A DNA stretch of 64,000 nt from a virus, in UHGV virus genome UHGV-0128973; one strand, given 5' to 3'. The notes below the pieces were generated by a model that did no database searches, had not been told where the DNA came from, and was given only the letters and a program-made list of their open reading frames with translations. The position numbers and the translations under genes are program-made. Positions within the stretch are counted from its first letter, which is position 1, and each line of letters starts with the position of its first letter. Shown piece by piece: positions 17,973-22,674 of the stretch.

Positions 17973-18635
17973 ATGCTCGCCTGGAGGCTGAATTTGCAGC
18001 TGAGAATGAACATACCACCCAGGGCGACTAGGACTGTTTTTTGTGTCGGTAGCGGTCCGTCACTCACTCGCGAGGACTGTGCTGCTATAGAAAAAACTGG
18101 CTGTTCAATCATCGCGGTTAACAATTCCTGGCAGATGTTCGATGACATTTATGCCTTATACGCCGGTGATTTGTCATGGTGGAAGCAATACGGATCCACC
18201 ATACCGGGAGGGAGATTCCGCAAAGTGACAGCCAACCTGGCGGCGGCGAAATCATTTTCGTTGGAGTACAGGCGATATTGTGGACCGGCGGAAGGGGTAA
18301 ATAGCGGCGCGCAGGCTATCAGTCTGGCTGCTGAATCAGGGGCTGAAGTAGTGGTATTAGTCGGCTATGACTGTTCTCTGCAAAACGGCCTTCATTGGCA
18401 TGGCGCGCACCCTCAAGCACTACGGAATCCAACGCAGGTGTCTATTTCAAAATGGCAACAGCAGTTCCTGGATACCCGCAAAAAACACGCAGATTTACAT
18501 ATTTTGAATGCAAGTAGGAGCAGTGCAATTCAATGTTTCCCAAGAATAAATTTAGAGGCAGTGATCGCGTTATTATCGTCGGCAGTGGCCCAAGCGCCGC
18601 AAACTTTGTTGCGCCGCGCGGAGTGCCGATTATAG
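17973..18635 (+). CDS. DUF115/Maf-like (sialyl/pseudaminyl-transferase-like) protein, paralogue 1
   Basis: FCVGSGPSL...IIAVNNSW...VVLVGYDCS motifs. Confidence 0.4.
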   Translation: MLAWRLNLQLRMNIPPRATRTVFCVGSGPSLTREDCAAIEKTGCSIIAVNNSWQMFDDIYALYAGDLSWWKQYGSTIPGGRFRKVTANLAAAKSFSLEYRRYCGPAEGVNSGAQAISLAAESGAEVVVLVGYDCSLQNGLHWHGAHPQALRNPTQVSISKWQQQFLDTRKKHADLHILNASRSSAIQCFPRINLEAVIALLSSAVAQAPQTLLRRAECRL

Positions 18636-19159
18636 CGGTCAATGGGGCCATCGACTGGCTTAACCGCGCTTCTTATTTTTTCACCCTTGATCCATCGCCA
18701 GACAATATGCGGCGCGTTGGTCGTGGCCGCCGTCGCCGTGGTGTTTGTTATTGCATGGCACTACCCGATGTTAAAGAACGTGAAGTCAGAGACGGCGTTC
18801 TGTGCTTCCGTCGTGTGGCTGAACGTGGCATGGAGCCAAAAAATACGAATTCTCCCGAGTGGTGGGCGTGGCGCTGGTCCGCACATTTCGGACTTTGCGA
18901 AGATGAGAATGAAATTGCCAGCGGCAATAGTGCATATGGCGCTCTGAACCTGGCTTTCCATATCGGATTCAAACATGTCGCCCTGGTGGGCGTTGACGCT
19001 ACACAAGAACCACGCGTTCACTCCGGCGGCACGCCAAAAAATCTAAGTCACCTGCCTTTGTTATTCCAGTCTGCGCGTGAACAGATTGACGTTGTTTCAT
19101 GCGGGAAAATGGGAGGTATTCCGCAGATGACTCTTAAAGAATGGCTGAAGAATACATGA
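18533..19159 (+). CDS. DUF115/Maf-like protein, paralogue 2
   Basis: [10 protein letters not shown]...[10 protein letters not shown]...VALVGVDAT, same motif order as the upstream paralogue; 5' end overlaps it. Confidence 0.4.
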
Positions 19160-19833
19160 TGGCACCCACAATTTATCACCGTATCGACGGTACCAAATAC
19201 AGGAATGTCTGGGTTGTTGGTGATCTGCATGGTTGCTACACCAGACTGATGTCCGAACTCCATCGTGTGGATTTTGACCCGGCGCAGGATTTACTGATAT
19301 CGGTCGGCGACCTTATCGATCGCGGTACTGAAAATGTCGAATGTCTGGAACTATTGCAGATGCCCTGGTTCAGGGCAGTGATGGGGAACCATGAGCGGTT
19401 GATGCTCGATGCGTTAAGTCCTGATGGCAACGTGAATAACTGGCTAATGAATGGCGGACAATGGTTCTTCATGCTGGACACTGATCAGGAAATATTAGCC
19501 AGGGCGCTGGTGGAGCTGGTAAAGCGTCTGCCCTATATCATTGAGTTGAACACCGGGCAAGAAACTATCGTTATAGCCCATGCCGACTATCCGGATAATG
19601 AATACCAATTCGGTAAGGAGGTGCCGCTTTTCAACGTTGTCTGGGCGCGCGAGCGTATCAGTGATTCGATGGATGATATTGGTGGCGAAATTTCGGGCGC
19701 AGATCGTTTTATCTTTGGTCACACTCCGGTGAAAAGCCCGAAGACATTCTGGAATCAGCAGTATATCGACACTGGTGCCGTATTTTGCGGAAACCTGACA
19801 TTGATGAAAGTGAAAGGTGATGGTGCAGCATGA
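19141..19833 (+). CDS. Ser/Thr protein phosphatase (lambda-PPase-like metallophosphoesterase)
   Basis: GDLHG, GDLIDRG and GNHE motifs in canonical order. Confidence 0.8.
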
Positions 19834-20531
19834 AGATTGCTTTAGTTCTTCGCTCTGGTGGTGACTATAACGCTTCCGATGTGCAGTGGCTGGTTAATCA
19901 ACTGCCAAAAGGCTATGAAATTATTTGCCTGACAGACCTGAAGCGTTTACATGTACCTGGCGTCAAAGTTGTCCCATTGATCAACCAGTGGCAAAAGTGC
20001 CGTGGCTGGTGGGCGAAAATCGAGTTGTTCCGACCGGATATAACCGATGATCTGTTCTATCTGGATTTGGACACGGTTATTGCCGGTGATATACGCCCAA
20101 TCCTAGAGCATCCACCAACCAGCTTCACCATGCTTAGGGATTTTTACCATCCACAATATCGTGGCAGCGGTGCCCTGTGGATACCAAATAGTGTTAAAGC
20201 GCATATCTGGAGTTCATTCTGGCAAGATCCGGAAGGTTGGATTTCTCGTTGTGTCACTACTGAGTGCTGGGGTGACCAGGGGTTCTTACGAAAGGTTATG
20301 GGCGATGATACACCAGCATTTCAGGATCTGTATCCAGGATGGTTTGTAAGTTACAAGGCCGATGTTGTGGAACCTGGTTCGAAATATGCAAGTGCGCGCT
20401 ACTCCAGGGGGAATGGGGCATTACCAAAAGACTGCCGAATAATCTTCTTCCATGGCAAACCGCGACCGCGTGAAGTGTCAGAGGATTGGCTTCCTCTCAT
20501 TAGCGCGTTTTTTGAGCAAGAATCAGAATAA
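19830..20531 (+). CDS. Hypothetical protein, possible nucleotide-sugar transferase (DxD-like LDLD motif)
   Basis: 233-aa ORF, start overlaps upstream stop (ATGA); function weakly inferred. Confidence 0.35.
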
Positions 20532-20532
20532 T

Positions 20533-20612: not shown

Positions 20613-20831
20613 ATGTGGCCATTCCGACGGAAATATCACTACTGGCTGATCGCCTTTGTTACGCCGTCCGGCGATATCAGGCATGTCATCACCAGGTATC
20701 GCAACAAGAGACTCACCTTAGCCAGAATTTTACAGGCTGCCATAGGTGAGGGACTGGATACAAATTGCGTAGTCCTTCCTCCTTCATACTTAGGAAAAAT
20801 GACCGAAGCACAAGCTAATACGGAACTTTGA
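20613..20831 (+). CDS. Hypothetical small protein (72 aa)
   Basis: ORF immediately downstream of the operator palindrome. Confidence 0.35.
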   Translation: MWPFRRKYHYWLIAFVTPSGDIRHVITRYRNKRLTLARILQAAIGEGLDTNCVVLPPSYLGKMTEAQANTEL

Positions 20832-20832
20832 A

Positions 20833-22095
20833 ATGATCACTTCAGCACAAAACCAATCAATCGAAAATGTATCTATCCCTGACGTCCTGAATGCCGGTAT
20901 CCCGGCCATTATCCAGAACATCCGGGCCGCGCAACGCCGCGTTAGTTGTGATGACCTCACAGCGCGTTTTTTTGATAATGCGGTTCAGTCAGCGGAGATG
21001 CTTCACGCACAGCTTATTGATGTTTATAACGCAGAAGCTGATAGCCATAACTCCCTGGTAGATGCAGCTGAAAATATGCAGTTGGATCTCGGTCTGAAGG
21101 GTAAAGAAATTGAAGAGCTTCAGCTACAAATTGAACATTTGAAACGCCAGCAACAGGACGCGATCGACGATGCGACGCATGACGCCAACCAGCGTGCTGA
21201 TAATGCCGAACGTATAAGCATTGAGCTGGAAACAAAACTCAATGAAATGACCGCGATGGTTGAACTGCGGAACTCACAGATTTCAACGCTAAAATCTCAA
21301 TATAAAGAGATCATGAAACTTGATCCTTTTAACCTTGAGAAACGCTATAACAAAGCTAAAAGCGAGCGACAGGAACTGCGTAAGCAGGTCGCCGACCTTA
21401 ACCAACAGCTCAAAAAAACTATTAAAGATGCAAGCGAAGCGCGCGTGGCATTTGCTAATAAAAAAGCAGAGGTTACCGCGCTGGTTAATGAGAATGCCAA
21501 ATTTGCGACGCTCAAGAAGGAAATGTATGGCATTACTGAGCGCCGTTTCCCTGCAAGCAAACTTCATCCGACGTTAGGGCAAATCTCCTTCTTCCCGCGC
21601 CTCCTGGCTTATGGGATCTCATCGCCTAAAGAGTTCAATAACGAGCGTCCTTATATCGTTTCTAAGCTGGACTTTGCTTATCAGTTCTGCTGCGACATGG
21701 GCTATGCCATTGATATCCGAATCAACGAATGGTTGATGCCAAACTTCCAGCCGCTGGCCATTTTCCGCGAGTTCCAGCCGGAAGGTTGGGTAGAGTTCTT
21801 CCATGAATTGATCTGTAAAGAGATGGAAAGCCGCCGCCCGGAACTGGTCCGCCGTGTCGAGTGGGCGCAAGAGGTTATGTTGGCAGATGCAGAGCTGCCG
21901 TTCGAACCGGAATTTATTGATGATCTGGCAGCTAAAGGGCTGCATACCCTGTTTGATGTGGTTACCCGCCGTCATGAGCAGTTGGTTGTCGAATTGGGTT
22001 TAGAGGAAACAGCGGCAAGAAGACTTCTCGATGTTTGCTATGCACGTAGCGATGCATGGGAAAAAGAGAACGGCGGCACTATTTACGTTCGCTGA
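20833..22095 (+). CDS. Hypothetical protein (420 aa) with N-terminal coiled coil
   Basis: Long ORF, heptad-rich region (residues ~90-230). Confidence 0.5.
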   Translation: MITSAQNQSIENVSIPDVLNAGIPAIIQNIRAAQRRVSCDDLTARFFDNAVQSAEMLHAQLIDVYNAEADSHNSLVDAAENMQLDLGLKGKEIEELQLQIEHLKRQQQDAIDDATHDANQRADNAERISIELETKLNEMTAMVELRNSQISTLKSQYKEIMKLDPFNLEKRYNKAKSERQELRKQVADLNQQLKKTIKDASEARVAFANKKAEVTALVNENAKFATLKKEMYGITERRFPASKLHPTLGQISFFPRLLAYGISSPKEFNNERPYIVSKLDFAYQFCCDMGYAIDIRINEWLMPNFQPLAIFREFQPEGWVEFFHELICKEMESRRPELVRRVEWAQEVMLADAELPFEPEFIDDLAAKGLHTLFDVVTRRHEQLVVELGLEETAARRLLDVCYARSDAWEKENGGTIYVR

Positions 22096-22167
22096 CAGTT
22101 ACAGTGTCACTTTTAATGCTGGTGGAGTGCGCCCACCAGCATTTTTTTCGTCCAATGAGGAGGGCAT

Positions 22168-22674
22168 TTGAGTATTTTCAATAAACACGCACACCAGGAA
22201 CGTCCGTATATCGTCATAGTTGATATTGATGGAACAATATCAGAGGCAACTGAAGACAGACTGCATTTGCTTCCGCCACCAGGTAAAGGTGCATTAACAA
22301 AGGACTGGAACGAGTTTAATCTCGCCTGTGACACCGATACTCCCATCACTCCAGTTATTGATATGGTGCGCCAGTTATTTAACGTTTACACGGTCTGGTT
22401 TGTAACCGGGCGCTGTGAGATCGCAAGGGATAAAACACGAGCCTGGCTGCGGAAGTACGTAACAAACGGGGCTGAGCCTTTGCTATCTATGCGTCCTGCC
22501 ACCGATGACAGAAATGACGGCCCAGCAAAGATTGATCTCCTTAAGAAAATTGGTCTAAGTAAAATCGCGTTCGCGCTGGAAGATAAGATTGAAGTGGCGC
22601 GTGTTTTCAGGAGGCACGGCGTGCTTACGTTAATGGTCAGGGAGTATGAAAATGCGCTTCTTCATCAACAATGA
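22168..22674 (+). CDS. HAD-superfamily phosphatase-like protein
   Basis: IVIVDIDGTIS motif (HAD motif I) near N-terminus; TTG start after RBS GAGGAGG. Confidence 0.45.
   Translation: MSIFNKHAHQERPYIVIVDIDGTISEATEDRLHLLPPPGKGALTKDWNEFNLACDTDTPITPVIDMVRQLFNVYTVWFVTGRCEIARDKTRAWLRKYVTNGAEPLLSMRPATDDRNDGPAKIDLLKKIGLSKIAFALEDKIEVARVFRRHGVLTLMVREYENALLHQQ

Follow-up and report, generated by a model that had tools for sequence, protein, structure and literature searches.

The Maf enzymes, flagellin glycosyltransferases of the DUF115 family (PF01973; structure 5mu5), are proteins of about 600 residues in which extra N- and C-terminal domains are thought to hold the flagellin. The Campylobacter sialyltransferases Cst-I and Cst-II (CAZy GT42) use lipooligosaccharide as acceptor, and WaaZ of E. 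coli, a protein of 283 residues encoded in the waa cluster, which we take to be CAZy GT73, adds a third Kdo to the inner core of the lipopolysaccharide (LPS) from CMP-Kdo. Retaining glycosyltransferases of the GT8 family, such as glycogenin, AgtA, and WaaO/WaaJ, are marked by a DxD motif and a C-terminal H-G-x-P-x-P(W) motif, and both AgtA and glycogenin have proteins, or glycans attached to proteins, as acceptors. Freeman et al. reportedly described virion glycosylation cassettes in mycobacteriophages in 2023, and the genes concerned sometimes lie within the structural operon, together with methyltransferases. According to two papers that cite this work, glycosyltransferases encoded by the phages modify proteins of the capsid and the tail tube (PMC10877033, PMC12691614).

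The window, meaning the whole stretch of 64,000 nucleotides that was analysed, is a phage-plasmid of the P1/P7/SJ46 type; the studied region shares 98-99% identity with phages SJ46, P1, and P7, from which the gene names (pmgO, pmgP, ppp, pmgQ, pmgR, pmgS, pap, and dbn) were carried over. A first-pass annotation had suggested that two DUF115/Maf-like paralogues, two phosphatases, a DxD-motif protein, and an upstream GT-B-like gene form a glycosylation or nucleotide-sugar module acting on virion, DNA, or host targets; the open reading frames lie where it placed them, except that the GT-B-like gene begins at 11040 and not at 11064. The pmgN-pap segment of this P1-family phage-plasmid is a mosaic rather than one module, in which only PmgO, PmgP, and PmgQ form a conserved unit, and the first-pass interpretation is partly supported. 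We put at roughly 0.4 the probability that these three proteins build a short glycan on protein, most likely on virion head proteins, using host nucleotide sugars.

The two paralogues are encoded on the plus strand by pmgO (17973..18635, 220 aa) and pmgP (18533..19159, 208 aa), the first 103 nt of the latter overlapping the 3' end of the former in the -1 frame. The annotated start of pmgO is itself overlapped by 59 nt by pmgN (17876..18031, plus strand), a 51-codon ORF for which the family search returned no match; the conserved domain of pmgO begins near residue 20, and an alternative start, ATG, is present at 18006. Both proteins carry the motifs VGSGPS, IAVN, and VGYD or VGVD in the same order, as had been noticed earlier. 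Pairwise BLASTP detects the N-terminal motif alone (E 0.003), while hhalign aligns the two family profiles over their whole length (probability 98.2%, E 5e-14, 160 columns), and each protein cross-matches the PHROG family of the other. On these alignments, PmgO and PmgP are confirmed as true remote paralogues, far beyond chance, and the paralogy is ancient. Their description as DUF115/Maf-like is upheld by Maf, the top match of both over 163 aligned residues, and by a fused homologue (P0051) that reaches 44.6 bits against PF01973, where the window's own proteins, at 23.4 and 20.9 bits, stay below the curated cut-off of 34.6. The AlphaFold models are confident (pLDDT 89.4 for PmgO and 93.1 for PmgP), and their single-domain Maf/DUF115 fold also occurs in archaeal MptE, in WaaZ of E. 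coli, and in the Cst sialyltransferases. With Cst-II, the PmgO-family profile lines up at both nucleotide-binding motifs, GNGPS...N and TSG...G-x-D; sequence matches to Cst-II are not significant (E 0.1-0.5). Both these matches and the sub-threshold PF01973 scores count against the protein-glycan reading.

The DxD-motif protein is PmgQ (19830..20531, plus strand, 233 aa), a GT8-like glycosyltransferase of the GT-A type. It falls into PHROG 1962 'glycosyltransferase' (E 6e-128), and its profile matches GT8 structures in the PDB at E 7e-8 to 1e-3, among them AgtA (6mw5, E 6.8e-8), 5gvv (GT8, 2e-5), and glycogenin (3.5e-5); the single sequence gave no match to Pfam Glyco_transf_8. In its motif D79-L80-D81, both aspartates are invariant across 46 homologues, and alignment of the homologues reveals H208, G209, P211, and P213, which form an H-G-x-P-x-P motif, to be near-invariant.

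In all 15 of the non-P1 lineages with enough flanking sequence, pmgP and pmgQ occur together, as direct neighbours in 14 and at a distance of about 3.5 kb in L022, and pmgO is present in 9 of the 15. Natural fusions join PmgO to PmgP (P0051), PmgP to PmgQ (P0300, P0365), PmgQ to PmgP (P0385), and PmgQ to PmgP and a methyltransferase (P0347), and methyltransferases also accompany the cassette in L015, L105, L021, and L022. Folds and motifs, this linkage, and these fusions make a glycosylation module the best reading of the three genes; co-occurrence and transcription units speak against extending it to the phosphatases and dbn, as had been done before. All named hosts of the cassette are Gram-negative (diderm) bacteria, and no nucleotide-sugar synthesis gene was seen adjoining it at any locus. 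In five prophages from three proteobacterial classes, the cassette is located between head genes and connector/tail genes: in Zhongshania (L015) and Pseudomonas (L104) immediately after the gene for the major capsid protein, separated from the capsid gene by one connector-like gene in Ochrobactrum (L103), and at the corresponding site in Methylophilaceae (L016) and Brevundimonas (L020), where no capsid gene was recognised. In three prophages it comes after the lysis genes: in L002, and in L003 and L105, where the terminase follows. In L108 and L021 it is found away from structural genes, among metabolic and replication genes, respectively, which counts against a protein glycan.

Gene context favours a virion or other protein as the target; Maf, the best structural relative, glycosylates a protein, flagellin, and AgtA and glycogenin, the best PDB matches of PmgQ, likewise have protein or protein-linked acceptors. 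PmgO, PmgP, and PmgQ would work jointly in the cytoplasm, probably as a complex, and would assemble a short glycan from host nucleotide sugars, with PmgO and PmgP each adding an ulosonic acid from a CMP-sugar, for which CMP-Kdo would be the sole possible donor in E. coli K-12, and PmgQ contributing a hexose taken from a UDP-sugar; a methyltransferase may cap the product in many relatives. The acceptor would most likely be a protein, in phages a virion head protein made simultaneously, and in one chromosomal lineage Ig-like (Big_1) adhesins are the likely candidates. To our knowledge, Kdo linked to protein is without precedent, which counts against this reading. The earlier suggestion of a DNA target is unlikely, since no base-hydroxymethylase was seen between about 9 and 27 kb in the window and P1 DNA is an ordinary restriction-enzyme substrate. 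In P1, plaque formation requires none of the genes treated here; for pmgO, pmgP, and pmgQ, both CRISPRi and deletion show this (PMC10695390, PMC9024508), an observation counting against the protein-glycan reading, and single-gene knock-outs cause no plating defect and leave antirestriction unchanged (PMC9024508; table in PMC10695390).

The main rival, unlikely on present evidence and yet the best of the alternatives, places the target in host LPS: PmgO and PmgP, acting as WaaZ does, would place additional Kdo on the inner core, PmgQ would act like the GT8 core enzymes WaaO and WaaJ, and new LPS in infected or lysogenic cells would have an altered or truncated outer core, so that P1-type or competing phages would adsorb less well to debris and infected cells. 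P1 adsorbs to a terminal glucose of the LPS core, and LPS is made by all named hosts. WaaZ is a member of the same superfamily as PmgO and PmgP, matching PF01973 along the entire domain (E 6.9e-7), a fused homologue has a precomputed faint match to PF27901 'WaaZ_KDO_III', and, among 14 Waa proteins of K-12, the PmgO and PmgP HMMs pick WaaZ only and the PmgQ HMM WaaJ and WaaO only; the similarity to WaaZ is nevertheless weak (12-14 bits, hhalign probability 14.5%), and on chromosomes the cassette is found among genes for adhesins rather than in waa clusters. The P1 annotation also predicts early, C1-controlled promoters for the pmgO-pmgP-pmgQ operon, which would suit a host-directed function, but most phages carry the cassette in a late operon, next to genes for capsid, connector, or lysis proteins, and LPS made so late could probably replace little of the outer membrane before lysis. 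Lysogenic-conversion LPS genes, moreover, are usually found near the integrase or attachment site and not within head operons. Reviews describe WaaZ as the third-Kdo transferase, with glycoforms that lack the terminal outer-core disaccharide (PMC6358824), which fits the LPS alternative.

Somewhat less probable again is modification of non-virion proteins, either adhesins or host proteins during takeover, the late-operon position then reflecting moron insertion only; morons classically insert between lysis genes and terminase. A chromosomal island conserved in five Pseudescherichia or UBA7338 species intermingles the three genes with genes for inverse autotransporters and for Big_1 and Invasin_D3 adhesins, and in Serratia PmgO adjoins two Big_1 proteins, contexts that also speak for the protein acceptor of the main reading. 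Set against these neighbourhoods are the recurrence of the head-to-connector/tail position in five prophages and the next gene in P1, the head-completion gene pmgR (20613..20831, plus strand), whose knock-out leaves heads and tails unjoined (PMC9024508). The window and the phage loci yielded no Big_1-type protein, which weighs against adhesin modification and also counts against the protein-glycan reading.

A role for PmgO and PmgP as nucleotide-binding proteins or small-molecule pyrophosphokinases of the MptE or thiamine-pyrophosphokinase type, rather than as glycosyltransferases, is improbable, given that Maf is their top match, that Cst-type motifs are retained, and that obligate linkage or fusion to a GT8 enzyme, often with methyltransferases too, fits glycan assembly and not cofactor synthesis.

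Outside the conserved cassette, Ppp, Pap, PmgS, and Dbn are accessory genes independent of it. The lambda-type and HAD-like phosphatases of the first-pass annotation are confirmed: ppp (19141..19833, plus strand, 230 aa) encodes a lambda/NinI-type Ser/Thr phosphatase (Metallophos 59.4 bits; PHROG 246 NinI-like, E 5e-113; NCBIfam PRK11439, E 6e-82), and pap (22168..22674, plus strand, 168 aa) a stand-alone HAD phosphatase of the polynucleotide-kinase-phosphatase type, with the motif VDIDGT and without a kinase domain (PF25109 HAD_PNKP 46.5 bits, cut-off 27.6; PHROG 415, E 6e-57). We know of no sugar-phosphate chemistry in either family. The GT-B label of dbn (11040..12038, plus strand, 332 aa), downstream of the ban helicase, survives only as a weak likeness in the C-terminal part, sub-threshold against Glycos_transf_1 (25.0 bits, cut-off 26.4) and with no PDB sequence match; the P1 annotation notes a 'possible glycosyltransferase', and a link to the cassette is unproven. 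The 420-aa coiled-coil protein PmgS (20833..22095, plus strand; PHROG 1660, E 3e-195; weak, coiled-coil-type Pfam matches only) is non-essential in P1 (PMC10695390).

Going by the P1 annotation, whose promoters and operators are conserved in the window, the stretch comprises at least three transcription units. The late promoter LPpmgL with C1 operator O26 (16876..16925), without a difference from P1 where aligned (from 16880), lies upstream of pmgL-pmgM-pmgN-pmgO-pmgP-ppp-pmgQ, and the C1 operator Oppp (Op83; 17816..17832, minus strand) upstream of pmgN, its region (220 nt aligned) differing from P1 at two bases, one within the operator. pmgR is preceded by its own C1-controlled promoter region, with operator-like sites at 20533-20549 and 20582-20598, and a predicted terminator-like hairpin (22115..22143, plus strand; 11-bp stem, then a T run) occupies the gap between pmgS and pap. 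A single glycosylation or nucleotide-sugar module spanning the entire stretch, with Ppp, Pap, and Dbn as members and DNA as a possible target, is very improbable. In its favour, the genes are close and share a strand, ppp sits between pmgP and pmgQ with stop-start overlaps, and a dbn homologue occurs 3 kb from pmgQ-pmgP in Buttiauxella (L019), its single co-occurrence beyond P1-like elements. Against it, ppp, pap, pmgR, and pmgS are missing from 15/15 non-P1 lineages and accompany the cassette in P1-like elements (L007) only, promoters and operators are separate by the conserved P1 annotation, with the hairpin before pap, Pap has a polynucleotide-3'-phosphatase-type HAD domain and Ppp is a protein-phosphatase-type enzyme, no base-hydroxymethylase was seen in the part of the window given above, and antirestriction is unchanged in knock-outs (PMC9024508).

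Compared with Maf, PmgO and PmgP consist of the catalytic domain alone (about 200 residues), are paired, and come with a GT8 enzyme. Nonulosonic acid is not made by hosts such as E. coli K-12, which calls for a donor other than that of Maf, CMP-Kdo being the proposed substitute. From the Cst enzymes they differ in the catalytic-histidine lid region, which reads HWHG.H in PmgO and LSHLP in PmgP. They resemble WaaZ at the level of motifs only, and the phage genes belong to late or structural operons rather than a waa cluster, while the donor of WaaZ is the one CMP-sugar available in every cassette host. PmgQ shares both GT8 motifs but is short, and a DUF115-fold protein always accompanies it or is fused to it. 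Mycobacteriophages have hosts among the Actinobacteria and enzymes of other families, whereas the putative glycosylation cassette pmgO-pmgP-pmgQ belongs to Gram-negative hosts; in arrangement, with positions in structural operons and methyltransferase partners, its homologues are organised as the mycobacteriophage glycosylation genes are.

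Three genes of the window, pmgO (17973-18635), pmgP (18533-19159) and pmgQ (19830-20531), probably constitute a cassette whose products act jointly in building a glycan, a reading that is assigned a probability of about 0.75. Over 17900-22700 the window shares 98-99% identity with Salmonella phage SJ46, P1 and P7, and P1 is collinear with 9001-23563 at 99% identity; this collinearity and the gene names, which were transferred from the P1 record, indicate that the stretch belongs to a well-known genome, and the open reading frames lie where the first-pass annotation had placed them. 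P1 is among the phages most used in genetics, and about one third of its genes are without a function. The genes considered here have been known since the sequencing of the P1 genome, their 'pmg' (putative morphogenetic) labels being based on map position, not function; automated annotation describes pmgO as 'alpha-2,3-sialyltransferase' and pmgQ as 'glycosyltransferase', and experimental knowledge of the three genes consists of their non-essentiality. Many PmgO and PmgP homologues in NCBI and UniRef carry the misspelled product name 'norphogenetic protein', the source of which is the P1 record note on pmgM, 'putative norphogenetic function'.

The PmgO and PmgP reading frames share an ordered series of motifs, VGSGPS, IAVN and VG(Y/V)D, from which a pair of paralogues had been proposed. 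Pairwise BLASTP aligns the two proteins at the first motif only (E 0.003); the family profiles, comprising 34 PmgO relatives (A5) and 32 PmgP relatives (A3), align from end to end with an hhalign probability of 98.2% (E 5e-14), which substantiates the proposal over the full length. Profile A5 excludes the fused protein, whose presence in profile A1 confounded hhalign against A3. Additionally, PmgO matches the PmgP family in PHROG and PmgP matches the PmgO family, and in a MAFFT alignment of the mixed families with the fusion (A2) the PmgO homologues are stacked on the PmgP half, rendering the paralogy visible motif by motif. Relative to the 34.6-bit gathering score of PF01973 (MptE-like, formerly DUF115, and including Maf), PmgO (23.4 bits, E 5.7e-5) and PmgP (20.9 bits, E 3.3e-4) score below and P0051, a natural PmgO-PmgP fusion, scores above (44.6 bits); precomputed PF01973 matches are found on many homologues. 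The AlphaFold models of PmgO and PmgP (pLDDT 89.4 and 93.1) display a three-layer alpha/beta fold that can be superposed on those of Maf, MptE and Cst, with fold-comparison scores for PmgO/PmgP of 14.3/13.4 against the Maf glycosyltransferase 5mu5, 11.8/12.6 against the archaeal MptE pyrophosphokinase 8sd5, 11.0/10.7 against the Campylobacter jejuni sialyltransferase Cst-I (2p56), 8-10/7-9 against thiamine pyrophosphokinases and 7-9/7-9 against animal GT29 sialyltransferases.

The two genes overlap by 103 nt (18533-18635) in different frames, and the overlap encodes the conserved C-terminal helix of PmgO together with the first strand and GSGPS loop of PmgP. In relatives, the HMM envelopes overlap by about 50 nt in a Citrobacter rodentium prophage (L003) and by about 30-45 nt in L007, L008, L015 and L018, and the called genes of a Pseudomonas locus (L104) overlap by 11 nt. 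A programmed -1 frameshift joining PmgO to PmgP, suggested by the length of the overlap, the -1 frame and the fusion P0051, was rejected from the sequence, since the overlapping bases code for these parts of both proteins and no slip site could retain both; translational coupling is the simpler account.

The third member, PmgQ, matched no Pfam family at E<=1 when searched as a single sequence, and gave no match to a Pfam GT8 model at the gathering score. A profile of 46 relatives matched GT8 structures, including AgtA (E 6.8e-8), the streptococcal GT8 5gvv (2e-5) and glycogenin (3.5e-5). Within these relatives, D79-x-D81 is invariant, and H208, G209, P211 and P213, each at least 90% conserved, form an H-G-x-P-x-P motif. 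PmgQ combines profile-level homology to GT8 with a DxD metal site and a C-terminal motif of the H-x-x-G-x-x-K/P-P-W type.

Several neighbouring genes can be assigned with varying firmness. Ppp (19141-19833) scores 59.4 bits against the Metallophos cut-off of 21.5, contains the GDxHG, GDxxDRG and GNHE motifs and matches the NinI-like PHROG at E 5e-113. Pap (22168-22674), a stand-alone HAD domain of 168 aa without a kinase domain, is of the polynucleotide-kinase-phosphatase type (PF25109 HAD_PNKP, 46.5 bits against a cut-off of 27.6), with motif I DxDGT present as VDIDGT. Dbn (11040-12038, after the ban helicase gene) appears weakly GT-B-like, scoring 25.0 bits against the Glycos_transf_1 cut-off of 26.4 with two weaker related matches, all on residues 219-315; the sequence gave no match in the PDB. 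PmgM (17231-17809) has a sub-threshold VRR-NUC match (21.3 bits against a cut-off of 23.8), by which it is more likely to be a nuclease than a morphogenetic protein. CRISPRi against pmgN (17876-18031) lowered P1 plating about 70-fold, and the pmgN deletion is viable (PMC10695390); the CRISPRi effect may reflect polarity on the downstream operon or a hit on a regulatory element. The next gene after the cassette in P1, pmgR (20613-20831), is essential, and its deletion results in unjoined heads and tails (PMC9024508).

According to the P1 annotation, whose features are conserved in the window, pmgL (16983-17228) and pmgN are preceded by a late promoter and C1 operators; operator-like sites occur at 20533 and 20582 in the C1-controlled promoter region ahead of pmgR, and a strong terminator-like hairpin (22115-22143) follows pmgS (20833-22095), so that the stretch is divided into several transcription units. 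The C1 operator consensus ATTGCTCTAATAAATTT is found at 16 sites in the window with at most 3 mismatches, where chance alone would give 0.3, and these sites, among them 3428, 6950, 37818 and 54124, chart the C1 regulon across the window. Further downstream, a segment of about 5.4 kb (23564-28990) encoding a PAPS-reductase-like protein (23601-24479), an Ead/Ea22-like protein (24872-25594) and a DUF551 protein (25749-27023) is present in the window and absent from P1, with the junction inside P1 pmgT. P1 pmgT looks like a fusion created by a deletion, given that the window reading frame 22869-23597 is equivalent to the N-terminal portion of its product.

The extent of the conserved unit was examined in loci with PmgP relatives (L-numbers) taken from species genomes and assemblies, whose reading frames were scored against HMMs built for the three families and for the other window proteins. 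A pmgQ gene accompanies pmgP in all 15 non-P1 lineages having enough flank (adjacent in 14, about 3.5 kb apart in L022), and 9 of these lineages also have pmgO, which is adjacent in most of them, fused in L002 and at a distance of 4-5 kb in Serratia and the Pseudescherichia lineage. The exhaustive PmgP profile search returned 524 clusters at E<=1e-3, and the scan of viral contigs with this profile returned 80 near-identical P1-like contigs. Fusions among the 524 clusters, all of them in metagenome proteins according to cluster look-up, join PmgO to PmgP (P0051), PmgP to PmgQ (P0300, P0365), PmgQ to PmgP (P0385) and PmgQ to PmgP and a methyltransferase (P0347), and in P0415 and P0418 PmgP carries a C-terminal extension in which the same motifs were read by eye; L015, L105, L021 and L022 have separate methyltransferase genes within the cassette or next to it. 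This co-occurrence, together with the fusions, delimits the conserved unit as PmgO, PmgP and PmgQ. Among the loci scored, the P1-like plasmid L007 was the only one with ppp, pap, pmgR, pmgS and pmgN, and dbn was found outside P1-like elements once, in Buttiauxella (L019). The first-pass annotation had correctly recognized a lambda-type Ser/Thr phosphatase (Ppp), a HAD-like phosphatase (Pap) and a DxD-motif protein (PmgQ); its proposal of one module of all these genes finds support for the linked and fused pmgO, pmgP and pmgQ, the phosphatases Ppp and Pap are not part of the conserved unit, and the inclusion of the upstream GT-B-like gene dbn is not supported. A GT-A-like fourth partner, a protein of about 192 aa that matches Nucleotid_trans weakly, was observed at L002 9757-10335 and L104 10254-10835; the copies from these unrelated phages are 30% identical (E 5e-30), and P1 lacks it.

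The genomic position of the cassette offers a view of its possible target. In loci from Zhongshania (L015), Methylophilaceae (L016), Brevundimonas (L020), Ochrobactrum (L103) and Pseudomonas (L104), it is flanked by head genes on one side and by connector or tail genes on the other. For example, the order in L015 is terminase, portal, protease, capsid, PmgO, PmgP, methyltransferase, PmgQ and a gp6-like connector; the major capsid gene directly precedes the cassette in L015 and L104, one connector-like gene stands ahead of it in L103, and in L016 and L020, where a capsid gene was not identified, it separates terminase or minor head genes from connector or tape-measure genes. Glycosyltransferase genes within a structural operon, the arrangement expected of virion glycosylation, are found in these five loci and in part in the window, with a late promoter upstream and the head-completion gene pmgR downstream. 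Elsewhere, the cassette follows lysis genes (L002), stands after lysis genes and before terminase (the C. rodentium prophage L003 and Alloalcanivorax L105), between holin and lysozyme (Serratia L107), among replication and nucleotide-metabolism genes (Sinomicrobium L021) or alone among metabolic genes (L108). In five Pseudescherichia/UBA7338 species (L009-L013, L106), its genes are interspersed among adhesin genes of the inverse-autotransporter, Big_1 and Invasin_D3 types, and in Serratia two Big_1 proteins adjoin PmgO. This chromosomal island of Pseudescherichia and Enterobacteriaceae UBA7338 (L106 1236-17532, also L009-L013) encodes an inverse-autotransporter adhesin of 1169 aa and several Big_1/Invasin_D3 proteins without a barrel domain, and the island adhesins are possible glycosylation targets. 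With these adhesins as queries, no Big_1 or Ig-like acceptor candidate was detected in the window, in P1 67.5-94.8 kb or in the phage loci; the P1 structural genes situated beyond the window amount to about 30 kb.

By inspection, PmgO, PmgP and PmgQ have no signal peptides and are therefore expected to work in the cytoplasm, where they would probably form a complex building a short glycan. The known DUF115/GT42-type glycosyltransferases use CMP-activated ulosonic acids, and CMP-Kdo is the sole CMP-sugar made by Escherichia coli K-12. No nucleotide-sugar synthesis genes were found beside the cassette in any locus examined, and the named hosts, from the small share of the family with known taxonomy, are all Gram-negative (Proteobacteria, one Bacteroidota and one Gemmatimonadota). 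On these combined grounds, CMP-Kdo is proposed as the donor that PmgO and PmgP would use, with a UDP-hexose as the putative donor of PmgQ. Maf, the best structural relative, glycosylates protein, and this activity, the repeated placement among head, connector and late genes and the adhesin island favor a protein as the acceptor, which in phages would be a head protein. The virion as target is advanced tentatively, at somewhat less than even odds.

The strongest competitor of a protein acceptor is LPS remodelling by Kdo transfer of the WaaZ type. WaaZ, which is needed for the third Kdo in E. coli (PMC6358824), falls within the same superfamily as PmgO and PmgP and is the only Waa protein matched by both of their HMMs, and from a set of 14 Waa proteins the PmgQ HMM selects WaaJ (E 3e-7) and WaaO, both GT8 core enzymes; BLASTP of WaaZ against PmgP gives E 0.001 at the N-terminal motif, and P0051 has a faint precomputed PF27901 match. 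However, the similarity to WaaZ is weak (12-14 bits by HMM, and an hhalign probability of 14.5% with WaaZ as a single sequence), and late expression beside head genes fits LPS replacement poorly. Acinetobacter baumannii KdoT was considered as a relative and rejected, being a different, GT-B-type third-Kdo transferase. Taken alone, the fold would also suit pyrophosphokinase chemistry for PmgO and PmgP, a reading disfavored by their obligatory association with GT8 and methyltransferase partners. There is no comparative support for a single large module that takes in the phosphatases, or for DNA as the target, and P1 knock-outs left plating and antirestriction unchanged (PMC9024508; PMC10695390).

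With a jointly acting, glycan-building cassette as the preferred reading, three 'putative morphogenetic' genes become a defined and testable set of enzymes, set apart from unrelated neighbours. In full-text literature searches, no description was found of the paralogous pair and GT8 enzyme as a conserved, fusion-linked cassette, of its placement in head operons or of the adhesin island. Virion glycosylation, if true, would matter for how the immune system recognizes therapeutic phages, for phage stability and adsorption and for glyco-engineering, and LPS remodelling, if true, would be a new phage strategy to alter its own receptor. The most far-reaching proposal, considered unlikely, is that pmgO-pmgP-pmgQ represents the first virion-glycosylation system of phages infecting Gram-negative bacteria, a portable one present in P1 and hundreds of phage lineages, which would attach to head proteins a glycan that contains Kdo, is sometimes methylated and is drawn from the host LPS precursor pool, with the enzymes borrowed by bacteria for Ig-like adhesins; it would also be the first Kdo modification of protein. 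Whether the cassette acts on virions or on LPS, relatives of Maf, Cst and WaaZ that are this small and have a single domain should lend themselves readily to study, the chemistry of WaaZ being still poorly defined.

Among known systems, phage enzymes of mycobacteriophages glycosylate capsid and tail-tube proteins, according to a statement in PMC10877033 citing Freeman et al. 2023, and virion glycosylation by the cassette, if true, would extend the phenomenon to phages infecting Gram-negative bacteria. The Maf flagellin glycosyltransferases, encoded in flagellar glycosylation loci, are multidomain proteins of about 600 aa in which flanking domains probably serve the flagellin substrate, whereas PmgO and PmgP consist of one domain each (220 and 208 aa), and no flagellar genes lie near them in the window. 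Compared with the GT42 enzyme Cst-II, the PmgO-family profile searched against the PDB aligns two motif stretches at E 0.12-0.56, short of significant similarity. The G-x-G-P-S loop, the Asn after strand 2, T/N-S-G and G-x-D, all four invariant in the PmgO and PmgP families, align with Cst-II, and the lid-region histidines H130, H132 and H135 of PmgO and H173 of PmgP are candidate counterparts of the catalytic His of Cst.
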